Numbered from the stretch's first letter, positions 23,578 to 57,057 are shown. The stretch: 64,000 nt of DNA from Candidatus Parcubacteria bacterium (GCA_003599755.1 QZJO01000011.1:66424-130423), one strand, 5' to 3'. The notes: a model not told the origin generated them from the sequence alone. Translations and numbers: made by a program.

Positions 23578-24443
23578 AACAACTCGGCCGCGAATCCCGC
23601 CGAGCGCCGCACGCGGCGCTCGGCATTGAGCATGCAGTATTCGAAATCAAACGCGGCGAATCGCTCCGGCGCCGCGAAAAAGAGACCGGTCGCAAGCGCG
23701 TCGGCGAGTACCGCGCGGTCCGCGATGACCCAGGTTGCGAGAATTTCGCGGGGCGAGCGGAGTGTGGCCGGATCAATGATATGATGCCAGTCGCGCCAAG
23801 TCCGGCGGTTCCCGCTGGAGCTCGCCATCGCCCCCTCGGACATCGCGATCGCACCGATGATCTTGGACGGGTCGTCCGGATCCTCGAGTCCGACGCGGAG
23901 CGGCTCGCTGCCCGCGTGGAATATGTCGCCGCTGCCGTCGACCACAAATCGCCGCAATCCGGCCTTCTGCAGATAGGCGGCGACGTTATCGATGAAATAC
24001 CCCTTGCCGAGCGCCCCGAAATCAAAGAGCACGGGCTCAGCAATGCGGATATGGCGCTCGTCCAGAATCGTTACCGTCGCATCCAAGTCCGGCGTGGAGC
24101 GGATCGTCCTGTGCGGCGTGAGCGTGTAATCCGCGTCGTAGCCCAAATCCGAAATTGAGAATCCGACGAGCGGGTTCAGTTTTTTATTCGAGGGGTGCCA
24201 GAGCCTCCGGTACCAGTCGAGCATGGCCGTGAAATCGGCCGGCACTTCGGCCTCGCCCGCATGCGTCGCGAGCCGCCGCACGAGCGAGGTCGCGATAAAG
24301 CGCGAATACGTCTGGTCGAATTCGTCGGCCATGCGCGTTATCGTTTTTTGAATCGCGTCCCATGCCGCATCGCCCATGCCGTCCCCGACGCTGATGCGCC
24401 AGCGCGTGCCCATGGATTCGTAGACCCACTCGCGTTTCGGCAT
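23574..24443 (-). CDS. apbE: FAD:protein FMN transferase (ApbE/Ftp family)
   Basis: SSGNRRTWRDWHHIIDPATLRSP (TSG...HHIIDP motif) and DGSGDIFHAGS; start overlaps the upstream gene stop by 1 nt. Confidence 0.75.
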   Translation of the reverse strand: MPKREWVYESMGTRWRISVGDGMGDAAWDAIQKTITRMADEFDQTYSRFIATSLVRRLATHAGEAEVPADFTAMLDWYRRLWHPSNKKLNPLVGFSISDLGYDADYTLTPHRTIRSTPDLDATVTILDERHIRIAEPVLFDFGALGKGYFIDNVAAYLQKAGLRRFVVDGSGDIFHAGSEPLRVGLEDPDDPSKIIGAIAMSEGAMASSSGNRRTWRDWHHIIDPATLRSPREILATWVIADRAVLADALATGLFFAAPERFAAFDFEYCMLNAERRVRRSAGFAAELF

Positions 24444-25954: not shown

Positions 25955-26134
25955 GGGAGGTGCTGGTATTGATGATATTGAAGCAGGTGCGGGGCGGATT
26001 GGCAAAGCAGAGGCATGCTTCCCCGTAGTCCGGTTGCGGCGTATCTTTTTCGCAATTACAGCGGCCGGTAGCGCCGGGAAAAGGAAATCCGCCCGAGCAT
26101 CTGTGCAGGGGCGGATTGGTGCGACGGACTCGCG

Positions 26135-27397
26135 TCACTCGGGGTGCTGCCGCAATCCGGCAAGAGCCAACAGCCGGAACGCGGTTTTGTAGGTGATCTT
26201 CAGTTTCTTCGCTACCTCCCGTCGGTTGCCCCGGCATTCGACCCAAAGATCCCGCACCAGTTTGATCCGCTGTTCTTCGGTCGTCCTTCTTTTGAGCTCT
26301 GTCCAGCTCAGCTGGATCAGCGAGCTGGGCAGCGGCGCGCTGGCGGGGGCGACGTCGGTGGGTTCCGGATCTTCCGCGGTGCTCTCCCAGGCGCTGCCCT
26401 GGGCCAAGTAGTACTGGATATCGCGTTCCGACACGGTGTCGCCGGGAAAGAGATGCCGTATCCGCGTGACTAGATGCTTGAGTTCGCGAACGTTCCCGGG
26501 CCAGGCGTACGCCTCCATGGCGCGGATCGCATCCGCTGAGAATTTTTTTTCCGGAGCTGCAGCTTGGAGGAACCGGGTGGCGAGCCCGGCGATGTCATCG
26601 ACGCGCTCCGCGAGACGGGGTACGTGGATCCGGATGACGGTAAGCCGATGGAAGAGATCGGCTCGGAAGAGCCCGCGCTTGACGAGCGCGGGCAAATCCC
26701 GGTTCGTTGCGGCGAGGATGCGCACGTTTACGACTCGAGATTCCACGCCTCCCACGCGCCATATCACCTGATCATCCAGGAACCGCAGCAGTTTTATCTG
26801 GAGGCCGAATGGGAGATCGCCGATCTCGTCCAGGAGGACCGTGCCGCCGTTGGCGGCAAGGAATAGTCCCGAGCTTTCGCGCACGGCTCCGGTAAACGCT
26901 CCGCGGACATGCCCGAAGAGCAGGCTCTCGGCGAGCTCCGGCGCGAGGAGGCCACAGTTCACCGGGATGAAGGGCTTGTTTTTACGGTCGCTGAGCCGAT
27001 GGAATGCCCGAGCAACGAGCTCCTTGCCGACGCCGCTGGCGCCGGTAATGAGTATCGAAGCGTCGGTTGCGGCGACTTTTCTGATGTCTGCGGCAAGTCG
27101 CTGCATGATCGGGCTGAACAAGAGGAAGCCGGGAACTAGCTCCGGATCTTCGGCGAATGCGGGGAATGCGGCGGCGGGCGGTATGACCGCCGCCGGCGCA
27201 GGCCTTCGCGAAGCGCGCCACGGATGCTGCCGGCAGAATTCCTCGAACGATATGAGCGGCAGGTTCGCTGTGCGCAGCCGGGTTTCGTGCGCATAGAATG
27301 CGCTTCTGCAGGCATTGCAGGAGCCGAACCGCCGGTATGTAGCCGGGCGGATGCCGCAGCGTTTGCATAGCGGCGCGGTCGCAGATGGCGTCACCAT
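26135..27397 (-). CDS. sigma-54-dependent transcriptional activator with N-terminal zinc ribbon instead of a receiver domain
   Basis: Walker A ITGASGVGKE; arginine finger/GAFTGA region HVRGAFTGA; C-terminal Fis-type HTH; N-terminal CKRCG...CNAC. Confidence 0.8.
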   Translation of the reverse strand: MVTPSATAPLCKRCGIRPATYRRFGSCNACRSAFYAHETRLRTANLPLISFEEFCRQHPWRASRRPAPAAVIPPAAAFPAFAEDPELVPGFLLFSPIMQRLAADIRKVAATDASILITGASGVGKELVARAFHRLSDRKNKPFIPVNCGLLAPELAESLLFGHVRGAFTGAVRESSGLFLAANGGTVLLDEIGDLPFGLQIKLLRFLDDQVIWRVGGVESRVVNVRILAATNRDLPALVKRGLFRADLFHRLTVIRIHVPRLAERVDDIAGLATRFLQAAAPEKKFSADAIRAMEAYAWPGNVRELKHLVTRIRHLFPGDTVSERDIQYYLAQGSAWESTAEDPEPTDVAPASAPLPSSLIQLSWTELKRRTTEEQRIKLVRDLWVECRGNRREVAKKLKITYKTAFRLLALAGLRQHPE

Positions 27398-33481: not shown

Positions 33482-34072
33482 TTAGTACCAGCTCTCGAGC
33501 CAGCTTTGCATCATGAGAATCTCGCGCGATTGCGAGGTGATGATGGCATCAGCCAGCATTTTCATTTCTTCGCGCTCGGTCGAGGCCTGGAGCATGCGGG
33601 CCATGACGATTGCCATCTCGTGATGCGGAATCATCTGCAGCATGAATTCGCGGTCAAACTCGGCGTCAGACACGCGGCGCAGCGCCTCGGTGTCCCCTTC
33701 CATGCCGCCCATGTGCATCATGCCCATGCCGTGCCTCGCGATGGGCGCGGATCCGAACCATTCCTGGTACCAGGCGCGCATGTCGCGATTCTCCCGCTCC
33801 TGCGCTTCGATGATGCCGTTGGCGAGCGAGAGGATTTCCGGCCGGCGCGACCGTTCGAGCGCGATGCCCGCCATCGCGATCGCGCCTTCGTGATGCGGAA
33901 TCATCTGCTCGATGAAGTGCGCGTCAATCCGCCCCGCAGCGCCGACCGGCGTCGCATCGCGGTACATCATGGGTCCGCCCCAGCCGTCGGGCAAAGCAGG
34001 CAAAACCAGCGGCGCGACAATCAAGCCGAGGATCAAACTGCCGATGCCGACGACGAGGATTTCCTTGCTCAT
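33482..34072 (-). CDS. DUF305 family protein (two DUF305 repeats), membrane-anchored
   Basis: Twice-repeated FIEQMIPHHEGAIAMA / FMLQMIPHHEMAIVMA motif; adjacent to the Cu ATPase. Confidence 0.7.
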   Translation of the reverse strand: MSKEILVVGIGSLILGLIVAPLVLPALPDGWGGPMMYRDATPVGAAGRIDAHFIEQMIPHHEGAIAMAGIALERSRRPEILSLANGIIEAQERENRDMRAWYQEWFGSAPIARHGMGMMHMGGMEGDTEALRRVSDAEFDREFMLQMIPHHEMAIVMARMLQASTEREEMKMLADAIITSQSREILMMQSWLESWY

Positions 34073-34132
34073 ACGTTCCCATCGTATGCTTCGCCATCGC
34101 CGGCCGCAAGCCGGCGATGAGCGCCGTGTCGC

Positions 34133-36259
34133 TCACAGCGTACGCCGCCGCAGCGCGGCCGCGTTGATCGCGACGATTACCGTGGACAGCGACATGAAGA
34201 CCGCGGCGATCGCGGGCTGGAGCATAATGCCCCACGCGGCGAGCGCGCCGGCGGCAACCGGCAACGCGATTACGTTATAACCGGTCGCCCAGAAAAGGTT
34301 TTGGATCATTTTCGCGTACGTGAGGCGGGAGAGCGTAATGATTTTAGGAATATCGCGCGGATCGTTTCTAACGAGAATAACGCCTGCTGATTCGATCGCC
34401 ACATTGGTTCCCGCGCCGACGGCAATGCCGATGTCGGCCTGGGCAAGCGCGGGCGCGTCGTTGACGCCGTCGCCGACCATGGCGACGCGCTCGCCGCGGT
34501 CCTGGAGCTTACGGACCGTTGCCGCTTTCTGGTCCGGCAGAACGCGCGCGAAGTATTCATCGATCGAGAGCTCCTGGGCCACCCAAGCCGCTACGTCTTC
34601 GGCGTCACCCGTGATCATGGCGACTTTGATGCCCATGGTTTTGAGCGCCTGCACCGCGGCGCGGGATTCCTCGCGGATGGCGTCGGCCAGGGCAACGCTG
34701 CCGACATAGGCGCGGTTTTCAGCGATATGGACTACGGTTTTTCCTTCGCGCTCGTGGGACCGGATTGCGGCCTGGTGCTCGGGCGGAATTGCGGCCCCTT
34801 GCTCCTGGATGAGCGGCAGAGATCCGACAACCACGCGCTTTCCCTCGACATCAGCCTGCACGCCTTTACCGCGCAGATTAGCGAACGAAGTATTGCTCGG
34901 AATGACGACCCTCTGCTCCTGGGCTTCGGCAACGATGGCGCGGCCGAGCGGGTGCTCGGATTGCGCGTTCGCGGCGGCGGCCCGGGAGAGTACGGCGTCT
35001 TTCGGCCCGATGACGGCCACGACCTCGAACGAGCCCTTCGTGAGCGTGCCGGTTTTATCGAAGAGGACCGCGGTGACGCTGCGTGCGGCCTCAAGCGCGA
35101 GGCGGCGCTTCACGAGGAATCCATTTCGCGAGGCGAGCGTCGTGGAAATGGACGCGACGAGCGGTATCGCGAGCCCGAGCGCATGCGGGCAGGCGATCAC
35201 CAGGACCGCGACCAAGCGCTCGACCGCAAACCCAAATCCCGCGTCAAGGGATATCCAAGTCGCGAACGTGATGCCGCCGGCCGATACGGCCAAGTATGTC
35301 AGATACATGGCGGCGCGGTCGGATACCAATTGCAGGCGCGATTTCGACGCCTCTGCCTCGGCAACCAGGCGCATGACGCCGGCAAGAAAAGTACGCTCGC
35401 CGAGCTTGTCCACGCGGATTTGCAAACTGCCGTCTTCGTTGATAGTGCCGGCGATCACCGGGTCGCCGCGCCGCTTCGGCACCGGCCGCGATTCGCCGGT
35501 GACGAGCGACTCATTGACGGATGATTCTCCTCCGACCACGGTGCCGTCGGCAGGTACGGTGGCGCCCGGGCGGATAAGTACGACATCGCCTTCCACGAGT
35601 TCGCGGAGCGGGACCGCGGTGGGCTTGCCGTCGCGAATAACTTCGGCGGTGTCGGGAATGAGTTTTGCCAGTTCCGCGAGTGCTCCTTGAGCGCTGGCGA
35701 CCGCGCGCATTTCAATCCAGTGGCCGAGGAGCATCACGGCGATGAGCGTGGCAAGCTCCCAGAAGAGCGTCATGTCCTCCCCGAGCAAAACCGCGCCGGC
35801 GCTATACAGATACGCCGCGCTGATCGCCAGCGCGATGAGCGTCATCATGCCGGGTTGCCGGGCCTTAAGCTCCGCTAGCGCGCCGTTGAGAAATACGAGG
35901 CCGCCGTAGAAAAAAACGATTGACCCGAGAACGAGCGATACATATGCCGAGCCGGGAAACGCGGGCGCTTCCCAGGAAAGAAATAGGCGCGGAAGGTCCG
36001 AGTACAGGATAATCGGAATAGTCAAAACGGCCGTGACCCAAAACTTTTTCAGGAAATCCTCGGTATGGTGCCCGGCGTGCTTGTCGTGAGCGGCATGGTG
36101 CATTTGCTGCTCGGCTGGCGACCGAGCCGCATCGGCGGGCACTAAGTCCATGCTGCATTTCGGGCACCGGCCCGGACCTGCCTGCCGGATATCCGGGTGC
36201 ATGGGACAGATGTATTCTGCTTGGTCGTGCGCGTGATTCATGGCAGTCAAGACCATCAT
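34133..36259 (-). CDS. heavy-metal (copper) translocating P1B-type ATPase, CopB-like (CPH motif) with His-rich N-terminus and TRASH/YHS-like CPxHPxI...CPKCxM metal-binding domain
   Basis: DKTGTLT, ACPHALGLAIP (CPH), MVGDGVNDAPAL, TGES; N-terminal YICPMHPDIRQAGPGRCPKCSMDL. Confidence 0.85.
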   Translation of the reverse strand: MMVLTAMNHAHDQAEYICPMHPDIRQAGPGRCPKCSMDLVPADAARSPAEQQMHHAAHDKHAGHHTEDFLKKFWVTAVLTIPIILYSDLPRLFLSWEAPAFPGSAYVSLVLGSIVFFYGGLVFLNGALAELKARQPGMMTLIALAISAAYLYSAGAVLLGEDMTLFWELATLIAVMLLGHWIEMRAVASAQGALAELAKLIPDTAEVIRDGKPTAVPLRELVEGDVVLIRPGATVPADGTVVGGESSVNESLVTGESRPVPKRRGDPVIAGTINEDGSLQIRVDKLGERTFLAGVMRLVAEAEASKSRLQLVSDRAAMYLTYLAVSAGGITFATWISLDAGFGFAVERLVAVLVIACPHALGLAIPLVASISTTLASRNGFLVKRRLALEAARSVTAVLFDKTGTLTKGSFEVVAVIGPKDAVLSRAAAANAQSEHPLGRAIVAEAQEQRVVIPSNTSFANLRGKGVQADVEGKRVVVGSLPLIQEQGAAIPPEHQAAIRSHEREGKTVVHIAENRAYVGSVALADAIREESRAAVQALKTMGIKVAMITGDAEDVAAWVAQELSIDEYFARVLPDQKAATVRKLQDRGERVAMVGDGVNDAPALAQADIGIAVGAGTNVAIESAGVILVRNDPRDIPKIITLSRLTYAKMIQNLFWATGYNVIALPVAAGALAAWGIMLQPAIAAVFMSLSTVIVAINAAALRRRTL

Positions 36260-37362: not shown

Positions 37363-38307
37363 TTACTGCGTGGATTGCCGCTCTCCGACGCGCGATCCGC
37401 GGCCGGTCTGCTGGCGAATGTGGCGCGTTGCCGCGCTGAACGACATGCCGAGAACTTCCCCGGCTAACTTTTCCTGCAGCGCGTGGTCGAATTGGACAAG
37501 CTGCAGCGCGGTCGCGAACCCGAGGCGCTGGCCGCGGGGACGCATGAGAGACAGTAAGGCGGCCACGTTCGGAGACAGCCGCCGGAGCGCAAGGTGCTGG
37601 TTGACCCAGCCGATCGAGGCGTTGCGGTCCTCGGCGATCTTCATGCAGCTGTGCCCCTGCGCGCGCAGCTGAAGAATCGCGCGCATGACGGCAATCGCGT
37701 CGTGATCGCGCGTGCCTCGTCGGGACGGGGTGATGGGAGCAACGGTATCGCCGTGCGATGTCTCAGGTGCTGCCGGTGCCTGGGGAGCGTGGGCGGTGCC
37801 GCTCGAGTGCGCGTTCGGCTCGGGCGGCGGGATTGCGGCCGGGGGCTGGGAACCGTTGCCGTTCGCTGGAAGATCGGCCGTTACGGCGGGCGGCACCGGC
37901 GGACCAGTTGGGGCAGGCGCGCTTCGGCCGTTCTGATGCGCCGGTTTCGGAGTCGGATCCGCGTTCGGCATCGCAAGCCGCCGGCGCGCATTGGCGATGA
38001 TCACGACGCCGGTGGCCATGTGCGGGCCACAGAAACCGGAGATGCGATCCGACGCGATACGCGGATGCTCGGCTCGATCGCCGACGCAGGCGATGCAGGG
38101 CCGCCAGGGCGAGCCGCACCGATTCTTGGCGCAGCCGTTGAGGTTGGTCGCGAAGTCGCTTGCCATTCGCAGGCAGCCGTCACGATCCACGCCGCCCCCG
38201 CCCAGAAGTGGGCATGCATAGAGTTTCTCCGGAAGGCGTTCGCGTCGCACGGTCGGGACGGGTCCGCGCGCCAGAAGCCGGTGATCACCTGCCCGGAACT
38301 GGGTCAT
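37363..38307 (-). CDS. DNA-binding protein: N-terminal Cys-rich region plus Pro-rich linker plus C-terminal ParB/KorB-like HTH
   Basis: GAAAGGAGAA RBS; C-terminus SCMKIAEDRNASIGWVNQHLALRRLSPNVAALL resembles the ParB/Spo0J HTH; N-terminus has 9 Cys (CPLLGG...GCLRM...GCAKNRCGSPWRPCIACVG...FCGPH). Confidence 0.5.
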   Translation of the reverse strand: MTQFRAGDHRLLARGPVPTVRRERLPEKLYACPLLGGGGVDRDGCLRMASDFATNLNGCAKNRCGSPWRPCIACVGDRAEHPRIASDRISGFCGPHMATGVVIIANARRRLAMPNADPTPKPAHQNGRSAPAPTGPPVPPAVTADLPANGNGSQPPAAIPPPEPNAHSSGTAHAPQAPAAPETSHGDTVAPITPSRRGTRDHDAIAVMRAILQLRAQGHSCMKIAEDRNASIGWVNQHLALRRLSPNVAALLSLMRPRGQRLGFATALQLVQFDHALQEKLAGEVLGMSFSAATRHIRQQTGRGSRVGERQSTQ

Positions 38308-38437
38308 GGGCGTTCTCCTTTCGTGGTGTTGAGAGCTCGGCACTTCTGGCTTCGTTGTAGCATGAGAGTGGCCAAAACCAATACCGCGCCGTACACAATG
38401 TACGCGCGGCACTGATAATAACTCTACCGAGAATTTC

Positions 38438-39772
38438 TTATTGGAGGAACATGCCGAGAAAGATGGAAAGCAGCGCGGCTGCTCCTTCGGCAGGCGAATA
38501 GGGCATCGGCTTGCCGGCTTCCGTGGAGCTCGGCTCGGGCGTCACTTCTATTTCCATTTGAGGCGCTGGATGAATTCGACCCTCTGCACCCTGGGGCGGA
38601 AACGGCGGCATTGCTTCGCGCGGAAACTCTGCGCTCTCGGGGGGAAATGGAAATTCTCTACCTTCAGAGGGAAATGGAGGCATTCCCTCATGCGGGGGCC
38701 GCATGAAATTCGCATCTGAAGGAGGCGGAAACCCTTCTCCTTCGGGCGGCCTCATCGTCGCAAAGCATGCGCCCATGTTCGCCTGGGCCTCTTGCGAAGG
38801 AGGATTGCCCGCCAGCATGCGGTCCAATTCTTCTCCGAGCGAATCTCTGAGGCATTGCTGGACTTCGGCCGGCATCATCTGGAAATCGTTTTTGAAGCGA
38901 TCGCGCCCTTCCCGCATTTGCTGAAAGTCCTGCGGCGGGATATCGCCGCGTTCCACGGAAAAATTGAAGCAGGCCTCTTCATTGGCCGGATCGTTGCAAA
39001 ATGTCTCGCAGGCCTCCCCGAGGCATCCGCCGGGGCCTCTGCCGCCCGTCTTTCTCAGAAATGCCGCATCTTCTTCCGTCATCATGCCGGAAGCAAGTCC
39101 GAAAGCGATGCATTCTTCCACGTGGTCCGCGCAATAGAGCGCGCATTCCTCGTCGCCGCGGCAGCGCGGCGGCGCAATACCCTGCTCGAGCGCGCCGAGT
39201 ATTTTATCTACCTCGCGCAGTTCTTCTTCGGACATCAATCCGGCGGTTTTCGCGAATGCGATGCATTCTTTCATCTGGGCGGGGTTGGAGCCGCTGCAGT
39301 ACGCGTCGCATGATGCTTTATCGGTGCAGCCGCCGGGGAGGGTGGCGCCCGATTCGAGCGCCCGCATGACTTTGCGCGCCTCGTCGAGCTCTCGGCCCGA
39401 CATCATGCCCGTTTGCTCGGCAAAGACGATGCATTCGCGCATGTTTCGCGTGTCGTTGCAGAACGCCTCGCACGAATTTTTCGACGTGCATCCGCCCGGC
39501 CCTTTGCTTCCCGCTTCGAGGAACTTGCGCGCCTTCGAAACTTCTTCCGGCGTCATGAGCCCGTTTCGTTCCGCAAACGCCAGGCAGGCATTCTGGTTGG
39601 CCGGCTCATCGCAATACGCATGGCATTCCTCTTTTGACCCGCATCCGCCAAGCTCGCTCACCGGGAATTGAATAATCGGTTCCGCGAATGCTCCCATCGC
39701 GAGAAGTATCAATACGCCGCTTCCGACAAGTGCGCCTGCCACCCTGCTCATAGCCGCGACAGAGCTTTGCAT
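38438..39772 (-). CDS. secreted protein with five tandem ~45-aa four-cysteine repeats and hydrophobic C-terminal tail
   Basis: Signal peptide; repeat GGCxSKxxCxAYCxxPxNxxxCxxFAExxGLMxxEE x5; C-terminal Pro/Glu-rich stretch and terminal AAALLSIFLGMFLQ. Confidence 0.6.
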   Translation of the reverse strand: MQSSVAAMSRVAGALVGSGVLILLAMGAFAEPIIQFPVSELGGCGSKEECHAYCDEPANQNACLAFAERNGLMTPEEVSKARKFLEAGSKGPGGCTSKNSCEAFCNDTRNMRECIVFAEQTGMMSGRELDEARKVMRALESGATLPGGCTDKASCDAYCSGSNPAQMKECIAFAKTAGLMSEEELREVDKILGALEQGIAPPRCRGDEECALYCADHVEECIAFGLASGMMTEEDAAFLRKTGGRGPGGCLGEACETFCNDPANEEACFNFSVERGDIPPQDFQQMREGRDRFKNDFQMMPAEVQQCLRDSLGEELDRMLAGNPPSQEAQANMGACFATMRPPEGEGFPPPSDANFMRPPHEGMPPFPSEGREFPFPPESAEFPREAMPPFPPQGAEGRIHPAPQMEIEVTPEPSSTEAGKPMPYSPAEGAAALLSIFLGMFLQ

Positions 39773-39773
39773 G

Positions 39774-40013
39774 TTACTCGAACGGATTGGTTTTTACGTC
39801 GCTGAACGGGTTTGTTTCGCGTACGGGGTTCACGTCGGGAACGCTAACGGTGCCGGACACGGAATTGGTCTGGGTAGATGGCTGCTCTTCGGCTGGCGCG
39901 GGAGCTTGGAGATCAGCGGGGTAGAAGGAGAAATAGAATAGCGCCGCAAGAATGGCAACAAGAACGACAGCCCCGATCCAGATTGGCTTCGGCATACGTT
40001 TATTATAGCCCAC
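39774..40013 (-). CDS. small single-TM membrane protein
   Basis: PKPIWIGAVVLVAILAALFYFSFY TM segment; stop is 1 nt from the start of the 38438..39772 gene; alternative ATG start at 39995. Confidence 0.4.
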   Translation of the reverse strand: MGYNKRMPKPIWIGAVVLVAILAALFYFSFYPADLQAPAPAEEQPSTQTNSVSGTVSVPDVNPVRETNPFSDVKTNPFE

Positions 40014-40059
40014 GCGAAAGGGCTGCTATGCACAGGACGTCTCGTATGGGCGGCACTCT

Positions 40060-41829
40060 TTAGCGCAATTCGTACTGGCTCAAGAGTTTCTTGTTGCCTT
40101 CGATCTGATAGTGCAAGAGCTCGGCATAGAGGCCTTTGCGCCGCGCAAGCTCCTGCGGGCTTCCTGCGTCGGCGATGGTCCCGTTATCGATAACCACCAC
40201 GCGATCCACGTTCTGGATGGTCGAGAACCGGTGCGCGATGATGATTACGAGGCGGTTTTTAAACAGTTTCTGCAATGCATCCTGCACCAAATGCTCGGAC
40301 CGCGAATCCAAGCTCGACGTCGCCTCGTCGAGAATCAAAATGGGCTTGTCATGCAAAATCGCCCGCGCGATCTGGATCCGCTGCTTTTGCCCGCCGGACA
40401 GCTTCACGCCCCGCTCGCCGATCTGGGCATCGAGTCCGTCCTTGAGCTTGGACACGAATTCGTACGCGTTGGCCTGCTCCAGGGCGCGGATGATTTGTTC
40501 GTCCGTGGCGCCGGGTACGCCGTAGCCGACGTTTTCCCGGATCGTCGAGGAAAATAATTCGTTGTCCTGGAATACGAGCGCGATGTGGCTCCGAACCCAG
40601 GAATGGTCCGCCTCAGCGTAGCTTTTGCCCGAAAGCAGCAAGCGGCCGCGCGTCGGCTCATACAGTTTGAGAATCAGGTTGATGAGCGTGGTTTTTCCGG
40701 CGCCCGAATGCCCCACGAGAGCCACGGTTTCGCGGTTCGAGAATGTGATCGTTACGTCGGTCAGGACCGGTGATCCATCCTCATAGGCGAAGCTGACGCG
40801 GTCGAACGAAATTTCCGGCTCTGCAACCGGGGGCCGCGCCGCCGATGTTTGAAAATCCTCGCGCTCAGGCAGGTTGAGTACTTCAAAGAATGCCTTGGAA
40901 TCCGCGTCGGCCTGCTGCACCTGCTCGAGAATAAAACTCATGCCATACAGCGGCCACCGCAGCTGGGCTAACAGCTGGATTACCAGGACCATTTCGCCGA
41001 GCGACAAATCGCCCAGATACGTCTTCCGGAAAATGATAAAAAGCACCGCGACAAAGATGATCTCGAGCCCGAATTCGCGGATGAAGTTCAGGATATGGTA
41101 TTGGGTCGATTGGCGATCATAGATTGTATTGATCGTTCTATAGGTGTCCGAGACCCGTTTCCATTCCTGCCGTTGGGCATTGTAGGTTCTGACTAGTTTG
41201 ATGTTGGCGATGACCTCGGCGATTCTCCCCCGCGCTGCGTCCTCATGCGTGTTTTTTTTCACTTGTCGCTCGCCCCACTTTTTTGTCGAATACCGCGTAA
41301 TGGCGATGTAGACGGGAAATACGGAAAGCGCGAGAAGTCCGATAGTCCAGTCGAAATACGAAAGCACGGCAATGCCGAACGCCGCCTGGAGAATGCCGGG
41401 GATGATCCAGTTGGTCGCCTGTCCGATGAAATCGCGGATCGAACCGATGCCGCGATTCAGCTGGTTGATGACTTTTCCCGAAATCTCACCGTCGAAGTGC
41501 CGCTGCTCGAGCGTGAAAATTTTCCGATAGTAGAGCTCCGTGAGGAACCTTCCCAGGCGCGAGGCGATATGATCCCCCACGCGCTGCCCGGCGGTGTTCA
41601 CCACCACCATCGCGATATTGATGCCGAGAATCAGCAGGAAGAAAAAGACGAGGCGGTCGTAGTCCCCGGCTCCGGCCGTGATCTGGGCGGAAAGTTCGTC
41701 CACGACGAATTTCAAGGTAACCGGGGTCGCCTGCTGCAGCACCGCCAAAACGGTGATGAGGATGCAGGCCAAAACAATCCACGGGTGCAGCGGTTTGGCC
41801 AGGCGAATGATATTGAGGATGTTCGTCAT
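40060..41829 (-). CDS. ABC exporter, fused permease plus ATPase (MsbA/type I exporter-like)
   Basis: Six-TM domain followed by Walker A GHSGAGKTT, signature LSGGQKQR, Walker B ILILDEATS; start at internal ATG 41829 because the upstream extension overlaps the real gene at 41949..42302. Confidence 0.8.
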   Translation of the reverse strand: MTNILNIIRLAKPLHPWIVLACILITVLAVLQQATPVTLKFVVDELSAQITAGAGDYDRLVFFFLLILGINIAMVVVNTAGQRVGDHIASRLGRFLTELYYRKIFTLEQRHFDGEISGKVINQLNRGIGSIRDFIGQATNWIIPGILQAAFGIAVLSYFDWTIGLLALSVFPVYIAITRYSTKKWGERQVKKNTHEDAARGRIAEVIANIKLVRTYNAQRQEWKRVSDTYRTINTIYDRQSTQYHILNFIREFGLEIIFVAVLFIIFRKTYLGDLSLGEMVLVIQLLAQLRWPLYGMSFILEQVQQADADSKAFFEVLNLPEREDFQTSAARPPVAEPEISFDRVSFAYEDGSPVLTDVTITFSNRETVALVGHSGAGKTTLINLILKLYEPTRGRLLLSGKSYAEADHSWVRSHIALVFQDNELFSSTIRENVGYGVPGATDEQIIRALEQANAYEFVSKLKDGLDAQIGERGVKLSGGQKQRIQIARAILHDKPILILDEATSSLDSRSEHLVQDALQKLFKNRLVIIIAHRFSTIQNVDRVVVIDNGTIADAGSPQELARRKGLYAELLHYQIEGNKKLLSQYELR

Positions 41830-44941: not shown

Positions 44942-45841
44942 CTACCTCACGTTCACCCACGCCATGCCCCGATCCGCGCTCTTGTAGATGGCGTTCTTGT
45001 TCGTTAGCGCATAAACAACGTCCGGTTCGGTCTTGCTGAACGCAAGATACAGGACGGTTCCGCCGGCAAAGGTTTCGTTCACTTTCTCCCACGAAACGCC
45101 GCCGTCGGCGCTTTTGCCGAGCCCGCCGAGGCGTTCGGAGAACGCAAGCGCGTAGTCATTGTCCTGCGGATGGGACGCAAAGACGCTTACCGCCCCGCCC
45201 GAAAGTTCTTCGGAAAGGTTTGCCCATGCATCGCCCTTGTCCTTGCTGATTTGTACGCCGTTTTGAGTTGCGGCATAGAGGGTATGTTTATCCGTATGAT
45301 CGACCGAGAGCGAGTACGGGGCAATTGAGCCACGCGCATATTCCCATGATCTGCCGCCATCCTGGCTTCTTTGGAGTTTACCGCCGAAAAATCCATAGAT
45401 GACATCTGGATTTGCCGCGCTCACCGCCATGGCATGGAAGTCCACCGGACCGCCGAGTCCTGCGGATATGCGTTCCCACGAGAGGCCGCCGTCCGTCGTT
45501 TTTTGAAGGCCGATATTGCCGCCGCGTGCGGGATGCCCGCTACTGAAGAACACGTTTGCTTCCGTCGGATGCGAATTGAAACCCATCAAGTCGTCGCGCG
45601 TCTCGCCGATGCGATAGAGGTCTTTGTCGTCCTTGAGGAGATATAACCCCTCGTGCGTGGCGATGTAGACCTTGCTCGCGTCCGTGACATCAACCGCAAT
45701 CCCGTGCGAATGGCTGAACGATGATACGGGAATAAGCGGTTCGCCGCCGCGGGCCGCGCCGGGGGCGTCTTCCTTAACCAGGAGAAAGCCGAGCGCGAGC
45801 AGGAGGATGGCGCCCCCCGCGATTAGATAGTTTTTCTGCAT
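44942..45841 (-). CDS. secreted BNR/Asp-box repeat beta-propeller protein (Ycf48/sialidase-like fold)
   Basis: Signal peptide; repeated S/TxDGGxSW boxes (TTDGGLSW, SQDGGRSW, SKDKGDAW, SADGGVSW). Confidence 0.65.
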   Translation of the reverse strand: MQKNYLIAGGAILLLALGFLLVKEDAPGAARGGEPLIPVSSFSHSHGIAVDVTDASKVYIATHEGLYLLKDDKDLYRIGETRDDLMGFNSHPTEANVFFSSGHPARGGNIGLQKTTDGGLSWERISAGLGGPVDFHAMAVSAANPDVIYGFFGGKLQRSQDGGRSWEYARGSIAPYSLSVDHTDKHTLYAATQNGVQISKDKGDAWANLSEELSGGAVSVFASHPQDNDYALAFSERLGGLGKSADGGVSWEKVNETFAGGTVLYLAFSKTEPDVVYALTNKNAIYKSADRGMAWVNVR

Positions 45842-45858: not shown

Positions 45859-46218
45859 TCAATTTCGGCGCCACTGCCGCATCATATCGATCTCGTTCGC
45901 CTGCGCGGCGATGATGTCGTTGGCGAGTTTGATGAATTCGGGGCGCTTCGTGCCGGCAAGAAGCGTGCGCGCCATTTCAACCGCGCCTTCGTGATGTACG
46001 ATCATCCCGTCGAGGAAGGCTCGTTCCAGGGCCGCTCCCGTTCTGCCGTCGAGGTCCGCCATCATCCCGCTCATCGCGCCATGCATGCCGCTCGGGATAC
46101 TCGCGGACGGATACGGCACGTTCTTCGCGGCTGCCGTCGTGCCCGCAACGTATCCGATGACGAGGCCGAGAATGAGGGTCAGCAAGCCGATGACCAAACC
46201 GTTGTTGATAGGTTCCAT
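45859..46218 (-). CDS. DUF305 family protein (single repeat), membrane-anchored
   Basis: LDGMIVHHEGAVEMA motif; TM N-terminus. Confidence 0.65.
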   Translation of the reverse strand: MEPINNGLVIGLLTLILGLVIGYVAGTTAAAKNVPYPSASIPSGMHGAMSGMMADLDGRTGAALERAFLDGMIVHHEGAVEMARTLLAGTKRPEFIKLANDIIAAQANEIDMMRQWRRN

Positions 46219-52892: not shown

Positions 52893-54218
52893 CTAGATCT
52901 CGCACGAGACCGATACCTCCTCGTCGATGCAGGTGTCGGTTCCCCCGCCGCCGTGTACGGTATCCGTGCCCGGGCCGCCGTCGAGGAGATCGTCCCCGTT
53001 GCCGCCCTGCAGCTGGTCATTGCCGTCTTCGCCGTAGAGCTCATCGTCGTCATTGCTGCCGGTCGCGTTGTCATTTCCGCCGCCGAGGCGGATGACGTCA
53101 TTCCCGTTTCCGCCGCTGACCGTGTCATTGCCGCTGCCGGTCACGATTTCGTCATTCCCGTTTCCACCGGAAACCGTGTTGTTTCCTTCGCCGCCGAAAA
53201 TATCATCGTCCCCATTACCGCCCGTAATAACGTCATCGCCGTTGCCGCCGTAGATCGTGTCATTCCCCGCGCCGGCATTTACTTCGTCGTTGCCATCGCC
53301 CAAATCAATCCAGTCATCGCCGTCGCCGGTCTGGACTTCGTCGTTGCCGCCGTAGGCATACACGGTCGCGGGGCCATCGGATTGGATGATGAGGTCGCGG
53401 CCGGGCGTTCCGCAGATGATGTCGGTTCCATCCTCGGCTTTGGCCATGTCCGTGCCATTGCCGTCGTACATGACGATCACGTCATCAACGCCGTCGAACG
53501 CGCGCAAGATCCCGTTATAAGAGCTTCCGTCATCGCGGCCGCCGTGGATGATTTCGTTGGCATCCACCCAAATGGTCGCCGGGTGGCCCTCGCAAAACGG
53601 CGCATCGGTCGGGACGCTCTGGACCTCCACTACTAAATCGCAGCCGAACGTTTCGCCGGCAAGCGCGGGATCGAGCTGGTATTCGGACGCGACGCCCGAA
53701 TCCTGGGAGCACTGTCCCATGAAGCAGGGCACATGCAAGTCAATAATCCATTGATCCGCGGTGTCGCTTTCGGATTTCGCGAGCGTTCCGACGGCGATGC
53801 TGGAGGTTGCACTCGGATCATGGAATGCGGGCACGCCGGTGTCGTTGGCCGGCGCGTTGTCCGGGGTTTTGGAAAGATACGGGCAGAGCGACCGATAACA
53901 GCGGGCATAGTCGGTCGGGTTTTCCCGGCAATACGCGCGTTCCTCTTCGCTGTCGGTGCGGGGCTTGGGCCGCTGGACGATGCGATATTCGACTTCATCG
54001 AGGTTCGGGTTGGCGATGAACGCCGATGAAAGGTCGATGTTGATGGGCTCGAGATGCACTTCGCCCGGAAATACGGTCGAGAACGAAATGATATTGGGCG
54101 TGACGGAGAGGTTCGCGTTGATGGTGACGTGGTTTGCGCTGACGCCAAGCGTGCCGAACGCGGCAATTGCCAAAAAGCCGGCCGCAGCTACAAGCAGGCG
54201 CACGACGTATGAATTCAT
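52893..54218 (-). CDS. secreted protein: SipW-cognate-like signal plus conserved ~230-aa N-domain plus C-terminal RTX-type Ca-binding nonapeptide repeats
   Basis: N-domain shares VEYRIVQRPKP...CFMGQCSQD...FGCDLVVEV blocks with the 58526, 60375 and 61756 paralogs; C-terminus GGNGNDxIxGGxGND repeats. Confidence 0.65.
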   Translation of the reverse strand: MNSYVVRLLVAAAGFLAIAAFGTLGVSANHVTINANLSVTPNIISFSTVFPGEVHLEPINIDLSSAFIANPNLDEVEYRIVQRPKPRTDSEEERAYCRENPTDYARCYRSLCPYLSKTPDNAPANDTGVPAFHDPSATSSIAVGTLAKSESDTADQWIIDLHVPCFMGQCSQDSGVASEYQLDPALAGETFGCDLVVEVQSVPTDAPFCEGHPATIWVDANEIIHGGRDDGSSYNGILRAFDGVDDVIVMYDGNGTDMAKAEDGTDIICGTPGRDLIIQSDGPATVYAYGGNDEVQTGDGDDWIDLGDGNDEVNAGAGNDTIYGGNGDDVITGGNGDDDIFGGEGNNTVSGGNGNDEIVTGSGNDTVSGGNGNDVIRLGGGNDNATGSNDDDELYGEDGNDQLQGGNGDDLLDGGPGTDTVHGGGGTDTCIDEEVSVSCEI

Positions 54219-54235
54219 TCCCGGAATATGACTAG

Positions 54236-57025
54236 TCATTCCGTTGCTGGCGCATCAGACGGCGGAGGGGTCGGAACTGGCTCGGGAACAGGTGCTTCGG
54301 GCGAGGGGTCGGCTGGAGCCGGATCCATCGGCGGAGGCGGAGCTTCGGCAGGATCAGGCACCGGCGCTTCGGCCGGCTCTTCGGGCTCAGCCACGGGCGT
54401 CTCCGATGGCGTCTCCGTAGTCGAGGAATCGGGCGTGGCATCAGATTGTTCTTCCGGCGTCGGAGCAGGGGTCTGGGCTGCTGGTTCCGGCTCGCTGCTC
54501 GCCTCCGGTTCATCAGCAACCCCGCCATCTACCGCGGGCTCCTCGGAAGCGTCAGTATTCGTCGCTTGTGAGTCATTTTCGTCTGCCGGCGCGGCCGGAT
54601 CTTCGTCTGCAGGCGCGCTTTCGCTTGCGGGCGCAGGGGTTTCAATGGCTTCCTCTTCGGGTTCCGGCTCCGGCCGGCGGACTTCTAACGGCAGCGGTTC
54701 TTCCACGGGGATATCAACCGCATCCACGAGTACGGGCTGTACGATGGTAGTCAGTTTTTCGCCGCTGGGCTGGAACGGCGTCTGCCACGGCTGCATGACT
54801 TCGAGCGGCCGGTAGAAATAATTGTTGGCAGCGCCCGGCGTCGGGTCGGGGTCCACCCAGTTGGCCGCGCCATCCGGAATGCGCGCGAACGATTTGTTCT
54901 CGGGCGCATCCTGGGTGTAGGCGTGGCTGTCGATCAACAAGCCGCCCGCGCCGATTTCATTCGAGAACAGGCGCACGGTGTCGCCGCCGGTATTTTCCAG
55001 TTCAAAATCGTCGTCCCCGTCGCGGTAGACCACGAGGAATCCGTGCGATGGGATGATCGTGCTGCCGGTATCGGTGATCGCGCCCGAGATCACGAGCTCG
55101 TTGTCGTTCGAGCTGTCGTAGAGCACGTAGCCCGCCACGTCCACGCTGAAGCCCGTGGGATTGAAGAGCTCCACCCATTCGCCGTCGAGCGCCCCGCCGC
55201 CCGTTCCCTGGTCGTCCCCGGTGGGGTTGGGGACGAATTCGTTGATCAATACATGGGTTGTCGAATCATACGGCTGCACTTCGCCGCAAGCGATTTGGTT
55301 GGGCAGGGCGCGGTAGTTGACCGTCACGCCCGAATCGAAGCGGATCGCGGTATTGGCATCCAGATCGTTGCCGGTTCCGGCTTTCGCGAACGCGGCCAAA
55401 AGCGTCCGGCTGCCGTTGATGTGAATGTCGCCTTCGGACGCGAAGAGCACGGCCTCGCCGATATCCGACGCATCGGCCGCGGCCTCGATGGCCGCGTCGT
55501 CGCCGGTAATCGCGCCGCTTGTGGATACGAGCAAGATCGCGCCGACGACGCCCGAGCCCGAAAAGCTTGCGCCCGCGGCGATATCGATCGCGCCGTCCAC
55601 GATGATGGTTACGAAACTGTCGCCGAATGCCGGGTCCTGGGCAATGACGGTGTTGGAACCGATCGCGAGATTGCCGTGGATGTAGAGCGGCCCGTCGATG
55701 ACGGCGCTGTTGTTCGCGCCGAACTCCACGTTGCCCATGATTTCGGCCGGTCCGAGCTCGAGGCCGACGGTATTGTCCGGGAAGATGAGATGGCCGTTGA
55801 TAGTGCCGCCGTCTTGCGCGCGGGCTTTCCAGAAAGGAATAGAAATATTCGGAAGCGTCGTAGCCGGGATATTCGTAAGCGTCGTACCGGACACGGTGAT
55901 GCTCGGATCAATCGTGTTCTTGGCAAACGCGCTGCCGTTGATTTCGCGGCCGGATCCCCCGCCGAACGCTTCGATCTCATCGTTGGAGCGGACGTTGCCG
56001 TTGACTACCACGCTCGGGCCGAACGTTACGTCATCGTTGCCGTTGGTCACGCCGGCCGCCTGCACCGCGAGTTGATCCGGAAACGCGGCGAAATTTGCCG
56101 CGCAGGCAAAGCCGGTGTCGAAGTTCAAAAAGTCCACGACTTCGGTCTCGATGTCGTCGATCGTCACCGCGACGCTTTCGGGCGTGAGGTGCTGCCAGCC
56201 GATGCGCGTTTCCTCTTTGACGATATAACCGGCCGGGTCGAGGCCCGTGAATTGGTAGTAGCCGTTGGCGTCGGTGACCGTAACGGCGATCACGTCGAGT
56301 GTATCGCCATCGAGCAATTGGATCTGCCAGCCCTCGACGCCGAAGTCGCCCGGCGTAAAGGATTCGGACTGGTCGAGGTCATGGTATTTGTAGCCCTGGA
56401 TTTTTCCCTTGGTCTGGGCAAAGTCGTAAATCTCGGTCGTGATCAAACTCTCGTGCGCGCCGGGCAGGCCGGAGTCGCAGGCAATGGCTTTGACCACCGC
56501 GTCGTCCGAAAGCGGAATGGGCCCCACGGGTTTGGGTCCGCCGGCCGAGATGCCGCAGACCGGATCGGGCGCGATGTTCGGGTCCAGCCCCGGGGTGACC
56601 GTATAAAACACATGCGTGGCGTCCGGATCGTCGTCATCAATCGTGAGATTGATCGGGTCGGTGTAATTGCCGCCCGGCGGCGTGATGACCGGCGGCTCGA
56701 TCATGATGATCGTCGCGGTGACGTTGACCACGTGGCCCTCGAACGCCGTGATAAGCGGCAGCGAGGCCACGCTCAGGGCGACCGCGATCGCGGTCAGGCG
56801 CGTGAAGGTCTTGCGGCTCGAGAGCCGCCGCTGCACCCGTTGCAGCATCCGCGCCACCGGAGAGATCCGCCGCGGTATGATCACGGCCGGAGTGCTCGTC
56901 TTCGCAGTGAGGTTGATGACGTAGCGGCTCAACGGCGCAGTCCGCTTGCGCTGGACACGCGTAACACCGCCTTTGGCAAGGCGTTTTATTTCGGAAATTT
57001 GTTTCTTCGAGCGGGATTCGTTCAT
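54236..57025 (-). CDS. large secreted surface protein: SipW-cognate-like signal, Cna-B/SdrD-B-like domain, beta-helix (bactofilin-like) region, lamin-tail domain, acidic Pro/Glu-rich C-terminus
   Basis: LPLITAFEGHVVNVTATI signal-processing region as in paralogs; GYKYHDLD...DANGYYQF Cna-B-like; HVLINEFVPNPTGDD...GEWVELFNPTG LTD; start 57025 vs 56848 uncertain. Confidence 0.65.
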   Translation of the reverse strand: MNESRSKKQISEIKRLAKGGVTRVQRKRTAPLSRYVINLTAKTSTPAVIIPRRISPVARMLQRVQRRLSSRKTFTRLTAIAVALSVASLPLITAFEGHVVNVTATIIMIEPPVITPPGGNYTDPINLTIDDDDPDATHVFYTVTPGLDPNIAPDPVCGISAGGPKPVGPIPLSDDAVVKAIACDSGLPGAHESLITTEIYDFAQTKGKIQGYKYHDLDQSESFTPGDFGVEGWQIQLLDGDTLDVIAVTVTDANGYYQFTGLDPAGYIVKEETRIGWQHLTPESVAVTIDDIETEVVDFLNFDTGFACAANFAAFPDQLAVQAAGVTNGNDDVTFGPSVVVNGNVRSNDEIEAFGGGSGREINGSAFAKNTIDPSITVSGTTLTNIPATTLPNISIPFWKARAQDGGTINGHLIFPDNTVGLELGPAEIMGNVEFGANNSAVIDGPLYIHGNLAIGSNTVIAQDPAFGDSFVTIIVDGAIDIAAGASFSGSGVVGAILLVSTSGAITGDDAAIEAAADASDIGEAVLFASEGDIHINGSRTLLAAFAKAGTGNDLDANTAIRFDSGVTVNYRALPNQIACGEVQPYDSTTHVLINEFVPNPTGDDQGTGGGALDGEWVELFNPTGFSVDVAGYVLYDSSNDNELVISGAITDTGSTIIPSHGFLVVYRDGDDDFELENTGGDTVRLFSNEIGAGGLLIDSHAYTQDAPENKSFARIPDGAANWVDPDPTPGAANNYFYRPLEVMQPWQTPFQPSGEKLTTIVQPVLVDAVDIPVEEPLPLEVRRPEPEPEEEAIETPAPASESAPADEDPAAPADENDSQATNTDASEEPAVDGGVADEPEASSEPEPAAQTPAPTPEEQSDATPDSSTTETPSETPVAEPEEPAEAPVPDPAEAPPPPMDPAPADPSPEAPVPEPVPTPPPSDAPATE

Positions 57026-57057
57026 GTGAGTCGAGTCCCCGGCCCGGTTGTAGAATT

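Follow-up and report, generated by a model that had tools for sequence, protein, structure and literature searches.

Three genes lie side by side on the reverse strand of the 64-kb stretch of Candidatus Parcubacteria DNA analysed here (hereafter, the window). The large gene, identified from the ORF list and its translation, encodes a secreted 444-residue protein with cysteine-quartet repeats (38438..39772, stop codon included). A GenBank protein from Candidatus Parcubacteria bacterium (C4552_04015) is 100% identical to it and is called from an internal Met. Immediately upstream is the gene for a 73-residue partner (39774..39995; identical to GenBank C4552_04020), whose start is most likely the ATG at 39995. 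The two genes meet at a TAA-C-ATG junction (39772..39776), where a single base lies between the small-gene stop codon (39774-39776) and the large-gene ATG at 39772. The initial annotation had described this one-nucleotide spacing and the small product as a tiny membrane protein, and we find the same junction and a single predicted transmembrane helix. It had also placed an MsbA-like ABC exporter upstream. This gene is indeed present (589 residues, 40060..41829, with its real start near 41829) and combines a TMD and an NBD (PF00664 and PF00005). Its best NCBIfam models are of MsbA, HlyB and CydDC type, with MsbA-type the best, and all scores fall under the curated cut-offs. Promoter and terminator scans gave counts at the level of shuffled controls, and a PADLOC defence-system scan returned nothing for the gene pair. 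Three features are missing from the initial annotation: the signal peptide and the two-cysteine cap (residues ~275-345) of the large protein, and the NPF-repeat tail of the small one.

Layout of the secreted repeat protein

The large protein begins with a signal peptide (residues 1-30; 39683..39772, reverse strand) that has a basic n-region, a hydrophobic core and a cleavage-type site between AFA and EP. Hydropathy is maximal at residues 7-31, and the AF2 model has a low-confidence helix at the N-terminus, with confident structure beginning at residue 31. Homologues have an N-terminus of the same kind. Cleavage is predicted between ...LLAMGAFA and EPI. The signal is of Sec type, contains no twin-arginine motif, and has no lipobox (L-[AS]-[GA]-C), the first cysteine of the protein being residue 44.

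Five tandem modules of four cysteines and three helices follow (residues 38-274; 38951..39661, reverse strand), as defined by pattern matching and AF2. On the same strand, their cysteine quartets lie at 39575-39643, 39422-39490, 39254-39328, 39101-39163 and 38960-39025, starting at residues 44, 95, 149, 204 and 250. The five regular four-cysteine modules of the initial annotation are thus borne out; its period of about 45 residues is not, the repeats being spaced by 46-55 residues. The last module is succeeded by a non-repeat helical cap (residues 275-345; 38738..38950, reverse strand), delimited by conserved alignment columns and AF2, with two invariant cysteines, C307 and C336. Its predicted helices span residues 280-299, 302-312, 314-320 and 327-339, with pLDDT of about 90-97.

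Beyond the cap, residues 346-425 form a disordered spacer (38498..38737, reverse strand); its richness in Pro, Glu and Phe, already described in the initial annotation, amounts to 22 P, 12 E and 7 F in 80 residues. Confidence in the AF2 model declines across its start, from a pLDDT of 73 at residues 341-350 to 53 at residues 351-360 and below 50 from about residue 362. In homologues the spacer varies in length and is rich in P, Q, G, E, F and Y, and some carry additional isolated four-cysteine mini-modules within it. The protein ends in a short hydrophobic or amphipathic helix assigned from hydropathy (residues 426-444, ...EGAAALLSIFLGMFLQ; 38441..38497, reverse strand), whose final ~15 residues match the hydrophobic tail described earlier.

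A signal peptide, a repeat ectodomain, a Pro-rich spacer and a C-terminal hydrophobic segment are also the elements of Gram-positive sortase substrates. Sortase, exosortase and archaeosortase signals consist of a motif (LPxTG, PEP, PGF or GG), a transmembrane helix and a basic cluster. A C-terminal sorting signal with a cognate sortase had been put forward for checking, and the family departs from this pattern on each count. Among 268 family C-termini, LPxTG and PGF each occur once (1/268) and GG-CTERM-like motifs not at all (0/268), and a basic tail is missing; the window protein has no PEP-CTERM or type-I secretion signal at its C-terminus, and likewise no GG-leader; and no sortase gene is conserved nearby. 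The terminal helix of the window protein reaches a KD value of 2.47 in a 12-residue window and only 1.35 in a 19-residue window. Across the family, a 12-residue hydrophobic patch is present at the C-terminus of 172 of 268 members, with a TM-grade 19-residue window in only five, and its helical hydrophobic moment of 1.48 exceeds the 1.03 of shuffled sequences. In most family members the helix lacks the length and hydrophobicity of a true anchor.

The four-cysteine module and its family

In the window protein the cysteines are spaced C-x5-C-x3-C-x8/10/6-C, with x4 before the second cysteine in module 5. Across all six frames of the window, the pattern C-x4-6-C-x3-C-x6-10-C-xx-[FYW] matches five times, always within the 444-residue ORF, and all four cysteines are kept in each of 1,358 modules from 205 family members, so the quartet repeat lies beyond chance. 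The spacing C-x5-C-x3-C-x8-C occurs 1,151 times in family modules, with x6 in 140. None contains a CxxC pair or a thioredoxin-like motif. Some tolerate an insertion of 25-30 residues between Cys1 and Cys2 with Cys1 retained. Co-loss of cysteines offered no guide to disulfide pairing, since no module lacks a cysteine and apparent losses of Cys1 proved to be long insertions.

AF2 predicts residues 31-345 to be an all-alpha repeat of three helices per module with pLDDT above 90, and a separate two-module model gives the same three helices at a pLDDT of 92. Each module has a pair of cysteines at i and i+4 of a single helix; of the remaining two, one belongs to the helix that follows and the other to the loop that precedes. 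The initial annotation could name no resembling repeat, and neither can we: the module corresponds to no known domain or fold by Pfam, NCBIfam, PDB sequences or Foldseek. For the window protein, Pfam yields no family at E<=0.1 and NCBIfam no match. A two-module profile finds nothing among PDB sequences at E<=10, and Foldseek finds no significant match in the PDB (best E = 0.68 with the complete model, 1.3 with the two-module one). Seven homologues gave no Pfam families except weak AtDEF-like matches. These matches, to the defensin-like family PF25052, were rejected: three homologues reach 27-38 bits, confined to the signal peptide and first module, where no single stretch is significant by itself, and the window protein has no match.

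The family comprises 1,968 clusters at 50% identity, almost entirely from Parcubacteria/Patescibacteria as judged from record titles. Family proteins contain 3 to 10 repeats, and some relatives join the module to Kazal and LamG extracellular domains. A literature search for Cys-rich repeat proteins in Parcubacteria or Patescibacteria found nothing relevant. Two other readings of the large protein were rejected. A diversifying effector is contradicted by the ~40-60% identity of relatives over the aligned region and by the presence of just one copy at every locus inspected, the 64-kb window among them. An S-layer protein was dismissed: S-layer proteins are not known to be Cys-rich and helical like the 444-residue protein.

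The small membrane partner and the gene neighbourhood

The 73-residue partner has a predicted N-in signal-anchor helix at residues 5-25 (39921-39983, reverse strand) and a conserved C-terminal tail, PDVNPVRETNPFSDVKTNPFE, at residues 53-73 (39777-39839, reverse strand). The linker between them differs among partners in both length and sequence. Conservation is highest in the tail, whose consensus is ...P-D-x-NP-x-x-K-x-NPF-x-x-[IV]-K-T-NPF-[EQK]-COOH. Its final NPF is present without exception in 67 of 67 partners, and in 63 of them 0-1 residue separates it from the C-terminus. The transmembrane helix has a median KD of 2.72 and a hydrophobic segment of ~19-21 residues flanked by aromatic residues and Lys. 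Flanking charge averages +2.3 on the N-terminal side and +0.4 past the helix, and is greater on the N-terminal side in 52 of 67 partners. From these charges we infer an N-in topology, which would make the tail extracytoplasmic, so that it shares a compartment with the secreted large protein. Pfam matches for eight partners are sub-threshold and driven by the transmembrane helix. Searching 5.8 billion sequences with the single small protein, a query too short for a database of that size, gave only three matches.

The small NPF-tail gene lies directly upstream of the large gene and shares its strand; a first pass recognised it at 76 of 86 related loci, and inspection revealed it at seven of nine apparent misses, for a total of 83. 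The three loci without it (L018, L042 and L046) are contig ends or contain a run of N, so the pair is present at every assessable locus. Of 76 loci, 56 have the small-gene stop within 10 nt of the next in-frame large-gene ATG (gaps of exactly 1 and 4 nt account for 13 and 14 loci), tight spacing that suggests coupled translation. Together, the pairing and the spacing support a functional tie between the two proteins, and the pairing is much stronger than initially guessed. No natural fusions of the two were seen among homologues. The number of NP motifs per partner is constant at about four while the number of repeats varies from 3 to 10, which gives no hint that each repeat has a motif of its own. 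We regard the two genes as a cell-envelope cassette, previously undescribed and so far found almost only in Parcubacteria/Patescibacteria.

The ABC exporter is adjacent to this cassette and outside it. The initial annotation had proposed that the exporter is coupled to the large protein, either by dedicated export or by handling of a lipid anchor. The arrangement in the window invites such a reading, with exporter, small gene and large gene on one strand and spaced 64 nt and 1 nt apart, and one other locus (L014) repeats this order. The coupling does not extend further: a full-length TMD+NBD exporter is found within 5 kb at only 3 of 87 loci, namely the window, L014 and L031, and at L031 it lies downstream. 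Clustering of neighbours at 86 loci identified no conserved neighbour aside from the small gene, and sortase, metal, protease and peptide-transporter genes were all unconserved. The classical Sec signal peptide makes a dedicated exporter unneeded. Lipobox, GG-leader and C-terminal type-I secretion signal are all missing from the large protein, and no membrane-fusion or peptidase partner of the exporter is present. It is extremely unlikely that this exporter has the large protein as a dedicated substrate or helps to give it a lipid anchor; the exporter is a chance neighbour, unrelated to the pair.

Cysteine chemistry and a possible surface assembly

Four cysteines per module are compatible with two disulfides or with a metal site, and we favour disulfides. 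This preference draws on the even cysteine count in 178 of 205 family proteins, the two-cysteine cap, the absence of CxxC, the company of Kazal and LamG domains in relatives, and the reported enrichment of MdbA-like oxidoreductase and VKOR in CPR bacteria (PMC6744442). No Dsb, MdbA or VKOR genes were seen among the window ORFs scanned. The predicted arrangement recalls the twin Cx3C/Cx9C (CHCH) helix-hairpin proteins and cystine-stabilised alpha/alpha hairpins, in which a helix bearing Cx3C is stapled to neighbouring elements and for which the question of zinc finger or disulfide also arose historically. It differs in that only one helix carries Cx3C, with a loop cysteine and a cysteine on the next helix as its partners, in that the modules are in tandem within a long exported protein, and in the lack of a Pfam match.

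The chief alternative, which we consider unlikely, is that each module forms a Cys4 site for Zn, Cu(I) or an Fe-S cluster, with the protein acting as an extracytoplasmic metal store, buffer or sensor. The geometry would permit it, since the i/i+4 pair, the cysteine of the next helix and the loop cysteine, all invariant, could converge on a metal, and retention of Cys1 across long insertions is consistent with ligation. The window also contains a heavy-metal (copper) P-type ATPase and two DUF305 genes within 8 kb, and a cupredoxin gene lies ~2 kb away at another locus (L004). Against this, metal genes are not conserved neighbours across the 86 loci, and a cap with exactly two cysteines suits a disulfide and not a metal site. 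CxxC pairs typify structural Zn(Cys)4 and rubredoxin-type sites and are missing from the motif, which remains compatible with an atypical site. No match was found to copper-storage or metallothionein families; Csp1 and Csp3, four-helix bundles with a Cys-lined core, differ from the three-helix tandem modules and show no Pfam, NCBIfam or Foldseek match. A pre-assembled Fe-S cofactor is argued against by Sec-type export without a twin-arginine motif.

The closest known parallels to a disulfide-bonded helical repeat are the Helicobacter cysteine-rich proteins HcpB and HcpC and other Sel1-like proteins such as COA7, which are exported or intermembrane-space alpha-helical repeats with cysteines that form disulfides. 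Disulfide-containing Sel1-like solenoids typically bind peptides or proteins, and COA7 in addition has disulfide reductase activity (PMC8892353). The latter is a precedent for redox-active quartets, which would make the large protein an extracytoplasmic thiol-disulfide buffer or oxidoreductase scaffold, and a high, invariant cysteine content in an exported protein is in keeping with such a role. We consider it very improbable: a CxxC or thioredoxin-like motif is absent, the cysteines look structural, positioned within and between packed helices of a confident AF2 model, and similarity to COA7 or Hcp is absent by sequence and by Foldseek. Membership of the Sel1/TPR clan is not indicated either. 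Sel1-like and Hcp repeats have ~36-44 residues, two antiparallel helices and a cysteine pair, whereas the present modules have 46-55 residues, three helices and four cysteines; the large protein has no Sel1/TPR-clan match in Pfam, and HcpB, HcpC and COA7 are not among its Foldseek matches.

Our main reading, to which we give a probability of roughly 45%, is that the pair forms a disulfide-stapled surface solenoid that is held by, or acts with, the NPF peptide of the partner. The large protein would be exported by Sec, and its mature part would be a rigid all-alpha rod of five modules and the two-cysteine cap. After export, its cysteines would be oxidised to intramodule disulfides, two per module and one in the cap for a total of 11, probably by machinery of the MdbA/VKOR type reported as enriched in CPR. 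Such disulfides would staple a helical solenoid with a small core and lend it stability outside the cell. The rod may be kept at the cell surface in a roughly stoichiometric complex with the 73-residue partner, whose C-terminal NPF peptide would dock on the solenoid, much as C-terminal peptides are gripped by solenoids of TPR and Sel1-like type. A second attachment, either spanning the wall or lying at the membrane surface, could come from the rod's own Pro-rich spacer and amphipathic helix. The role would be structural or adhesive, as an envelope or surface scaffold. Counting against this reading are the constant number of NP motifs despite varying repeat numbers, the shortness and polarity of the terminal helix in most members, and the lack of Dsb, MdbA or VKOR genes among the window ORFs scanned.

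Systems in which TPR solenoids bind C-terminal peptides, such as Hop/CHIP with EEVD-COOH and PEX5 with PTS1, resemble this arrangement in pairing a solenoid with a motif at the extreme C-terminus of its partner. The likeness is a functional analogy only, with no membership by sequence or fold, and the assembly here would be extracytoplasmic and Cys-stapled, with putative binding. A small gene encoding an N-terminal hydrophobic segment and a conserved extreme C-terminus next to a helical-repeat gene is also reminiscent of RNPP cassettes, and the small ORF might encode a pre-pro-peptide from which the NPF peptide is released as a signal or cofactor, the solenoid being its extracellular receptor, carrier or processing scaffold. 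The variable linker between helix and tail would fit a processed precursor. RNPP receptors are cytoplasmic TPR proteins that act through an HTH or phosphatase output and are paired with a secreted, processed peptide, whereas the solenoid here bears a signal peptide and lacks any output domain. The ~19-21-residue hydrophobic segment of the partner, with its aromatic and Lys flanks, looks like a long signal-anchor and not a cleavable signal peptide, and no protease or peptide transporter is conserved nearby. Release of the peptide is therefore improbable.

A bolder form of the surface-solenoid reading is speculative and, in our estimate, rather doubtful. It holds that the pair is a previously unrecognised extracytoplasmic recognition system almost confined to Parcubacteria: a solenoid of new three-helix fold, stapled by disulfides, would clamp the free NPF end of its membrane-anchored partner. 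Together with its aromatic/Pro/Gln-rich low-complexity tail, the solenoid might form a main tether or mesh in the envelope of these ultra-small cells, perhaps a host-contact layer. If the NPF tail does bind the solenoid, the two would be a new extracellular peptide-recognition pair and a possible binding module.

Parcubacteria rank with the most abundant of uncultivated bacteria, yet little is known of what their cell surface is made of. The gene pair is a testable envelope component, unannotated, with a confidently predicted repeat fold that has no PDB match by Foldseek. The four-cysteine three-helix module is a candidate domain family for which a curated model is absent. Finally, a small ORF homologous to the partner also occurs at one locus of different architecture (L089).

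Architecture of the large protein

The large gene (38438..39772 (-)) encodes a 444-aa protein with five Cys quartets, whose first Cys residues lie at aa 44, 95, 149, 204 and 250. The quartet spacing is C-x5-C-x3-C-x8/x10/x6-C followed by xx-F, with x4 before Cys2 in the last module. A six-frame scan of the window matched this pattern five times in the large-protein ORF and nowhere else. The initial annotation had described a regular repeat with four Cys per unit, which holds, but its period of ~45 aa does not, since the modules recur every 46–55 aa. Residues 1–30 resemble a Sec signal peptide, with a basic n-region, a hydrophobic core and the ending AMGAFA↓EP; it has neither a lipobox nor a twin arginine. 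The GenBank entry C4552_04015, a 100% identical match to the large protein, begins at an internal Met (aa 26), so that this version (P0001) lacks the signal peptide and masks both the fact that the protein is secreted and the 1-nt junction with the upstream gene.

Module five is followed by a conserved non-repeat helical cap (aa ~275–345), overlooked in the initial annotation, which adds two invariant Cys, C307 and C336. A Pro/Glu/Phe-rich segment and a hydrophobic C-terminal tail had been reported beyond the repeats, and both are present, the former at aa 346–425 (P 22, E 12 and F 7 in 80 residues). An AlphaFold2 model built on a 120-sequence alignment predicts an all-helical structure for aa 31–345 with pLDDT >90, and a two-module construct modelled separately reached a pLDDT of 92. 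Each predicted module has three helices, with Cys1 in the loop preceding helix 1, Cys2 and Cys3 at i/i+4 on helix 1, and Cys4 on helix 2. The model is disordered from about aa 350, and the last ~17 residues form a low-confidence helix with a hydrophobic moment of 1.48, compared with 1.03 for shuffled sequence. A TM-grade C-terminal segment is found in just 5 of 268 family members.

A large family of hypothetical proteins

When 5.8 billion clustered proteins were searched and 8,000 candidates scored, at least 762 of these proved to be relatives; those with names are each a 'hypothetical protein' from Parcubacteria or Patescibacteria MAGs. When 1.84 billion representatives were searched exhaustively with a profile, 1,968 clusters passed E≤1e-3, of which 1,701 reached E≤1e-10 and 1,190 reached E≤1e-30, which indicates a large and sharply bounded family. 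Searching GTDB species representatives with just two peptide patterns yielded 199 confirmed loci. Record titles of the 80 GTDB loci that we fetched carry the labels Kaiser-, Jorgensen-, Lipton-, Yanofsky-, Nomura-, Wolfe-, Azam-, Staskawicz-, Giovannoni-, Nealson- and Sungbacteria, Paceibacterota and Minisyncoccia, and some read 'uncultured Candidatus Saccharibacteria', a pipeline label for bins. The cassette has its closest relative in a Kaiserbacteria MAG (L009), at 68% identity across two modules.

Members have 3 to 10 repeats, most commonly 6–7, and a set of 205 proteins yielded 1,358 modules, every one of which keeps all four Cys. Loss of Cys1 in some modules proved only apparent and reflects 25–30 aa insertions between Cys1 and Cys2. 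Modules one and two and the last module with the cap are best conserved; it is the number of repeats between them that differs among members. Some members contain Kazal inserts or a C-terminal Laminin_G_3 domain. A sub-family (P0163, P0176, P0213, P0215, P0223, P0237, P0238, P0258 and P0262) carries an extra N-terminal domain of ~110–160 aa, unannotated and without a Pfam match, with the conserved motif LKKDxNGLFTLTIxDPxGIxEFSL...DCxGN; some of these proteins have Kazal inserts, a LamG domain or the C-terminal Cys motif NYNYCKQC[FY]P[DE][KR]. In many members, isolated four-Cys mini-modules (GPGGC-x5-C-x3-C-x6-C-xx-F, third helix absent) are scattered through Pro/Gln/Gly-rich tails, as at aa 423–564 of the L053 protein and aa 432–513 of the L068 protein. 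Their isolation in low-complexity sequence implies that the Cys quartet is a self-contained unit.

The repeat corresponds to no known domain, and databases list the family as hypothetical proteins only. The large protein has no Pfam or NCBIfam match at E≤0.1; against PDB sequences the single sequence gave only E>0.8, and a two-module profile gave nothing at E≤10. Foldseek searches of the PDB returned nothing significant for the whole model (best E 0.68) or the two-module model (best E 1.3, TM-scores ≤0.37). Several helical-repeat proteins rank among the top insignificant matches of the whole model, including AP-2 alpha, the VPS35 C-terminal region, the AlgK complex, SA2 and the kinesin light chain TPR domain. 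A weak precomputed Pfam label in a few homologues, 'AtDEF-like', extends only over the signal peptide plus module one, and we do not consider it credible. We found no description of the family in the literature. The described proteins nearest in kind are HcpB, HcpC and COA7, Sel1-like repeat proteins that contain disulfides (PMC8892353). The large protein does not belong with them by sequence profile, by the length of its repeat, by the number of helices or by the fold search. We rate it as an exported cysteine-stapled helical-repeat protein in the general sense, with a moderate chance that it represents something more distinctive.

An obligate small partner

Gene neighbourhoods were compared at 86 loci, comprising six found by protein identity and the 80 from GTDB. 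Only one neighbour of the large gene is conserved, a small same-strand ORF immediately upstream of it (39774..39995 (-) in the window), detected in 76 of the 86 loci on a first pass. Seven of nine apparent misses do have the ORF on inspection (NPY variants or a filter effect), and at the loci left without it (L018, L042 and L046) the sequence stops at a contig end or runs into a stretch of N. The small gene is an obligate partner, previously unnoticed, and it is likewise directly upstream of the gene for P0176 with its extra N-terminal domain. No other neighbour family occurs in more than eight loci by all-against-all clustering of the neighbouring ORFs.

The 1-nt gap reported between the two genes is correct, the small-ORF stop being TAA at 39774–39776 and the large-gene ATG lying at 39772. 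From the small-gene stop to the next ATG in the large-gene frame the distance is ≤10 nt in 56 of 76 loci (1 nt in 13, 4 nt in 14), and these short gaps indicate coupled translation. The proposed operon also included the MsbA-like ABC exporter upstream (40060..41829 (-)), and dedicated export or lipid-anchor handling by this transporter had been raised as possibilities; the operon proposal holds for the small gene but not for the exporter. The exporter has a TMD and an NBD, a true start near 41829, and best NCBIfam matches that are MsbA-type and all below cut-off. A full TMD+NBD exporter lies within 5 kb of the large gene only in the window, L014 (upstream) and L031 (downstream), so the adjacency is incidental and the neighbourhood data contradict ABC-dependent export.

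The small partner (73 aa in the window, family median 90 aa) has no match in Pfam, NCBIfam or PADLOC. A 19-aa stretch of it is strongly hydrophobic (median KD 2.72) and is flanked by net charges of +2.3 on the N-terminal side and +0.4 on the C-terminal side, the former being greater in 52 of 67 proteins; by the positive-inside rule, the N-terminus would be inside and the C-terminus outside. A variable linker leads to the conserved part, the last ~26 residues, NPL-E-N-K-P-D-x-NP-x-x-K-[TA]-NPF-x-x-[IV]-K-T-NPF, with 0 or 1 residue after the final NPF in 63 of 67.

Cysteine chemistry and a possible membrane-tethered complex

Indirect evidence favours disulfides over metal ligands at roughly 70:30. 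Points for disulfides are the predicted Sec export of the large protein by its signal peptide, an even Cys count in 178 of 205 members, the absence of a CxxC knuckle from family modules, and the occurrence of the module alongside further disulfide-rich domains of extracellular type, Kazal among them. The cap has exactly two invariant Cys, which permits a disulfide and precludes a four-ligand site. Enrichment of CPR genomes for an MdbA-like thiol-disulfide oxidoreductase, frequently adjoining VKOR, has been reported (PMC6744442). The four invariant Cys of a module could instead converge on a metal, and the cassette lies beside a metal-handling cluster with a heavy-metal P-type ATPase that has an HMBD (PF19335) at its N-terminus, plus two DUF305 proteins (33482..36259 and 45859..46218 (-)), but this linkage is not kept in other loci. 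A BNR/sortilin-like secreted protein (44942..45841 (-)) is encoded near the cluster.

The conserved and closely spaced gene pair would put the membrane-anchored C-terminal peptide of the small partner and the rigid helical-repeat rod into one extracytoplasmic compartment, where we infer, as the simplest reading, that they form a stoichiometric complex. In it the solenoid would receive the NPF tail, by analogy with C-terminal peptides on TPR/SLR solenoids, which would keep the rod tethered to the membrane. The conserved end modules and variable middle suggest specific contacts at the rod ends, and the Pro-rich spacer and short amphipathic C-terminal helix may provide a second attachment or self-association. 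Alternatively, the NPF peptide could be processed, with the large protein as its extracellular receptor, or the large protein could be a redox-active scaffold.

Directly downstream of the cassette is a candidate 349-aa ORF (37363..38412 (-); 60% GC) with a Pro/Ala-rich middle and no Pfam, NCBIfam or PADLOC match. An RnfD/NQR2-like and NAD_binding_1 fusion (24443..26005 (-)), adjoined by ApbE in the window, recurs ~2–4 kb from the cassette in L004 (L004:3856-5933), which may be chance or loose synteny. The window also encodes regulators of kinds unusual in Parcubacteria, a sigma-54 activator (26135..27397 (-)) and an adenylate cyclase with CHASE2, and its GC of 52–65% is high for this group. 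Predicted surface or secreted proteins encoded at 52893..57196 and 61756..63207 (-) include one with RTX calcium-binding repeats, a 986-aa protein with Lamin-tail and SdrD_B domains, and one with a VWA domain.
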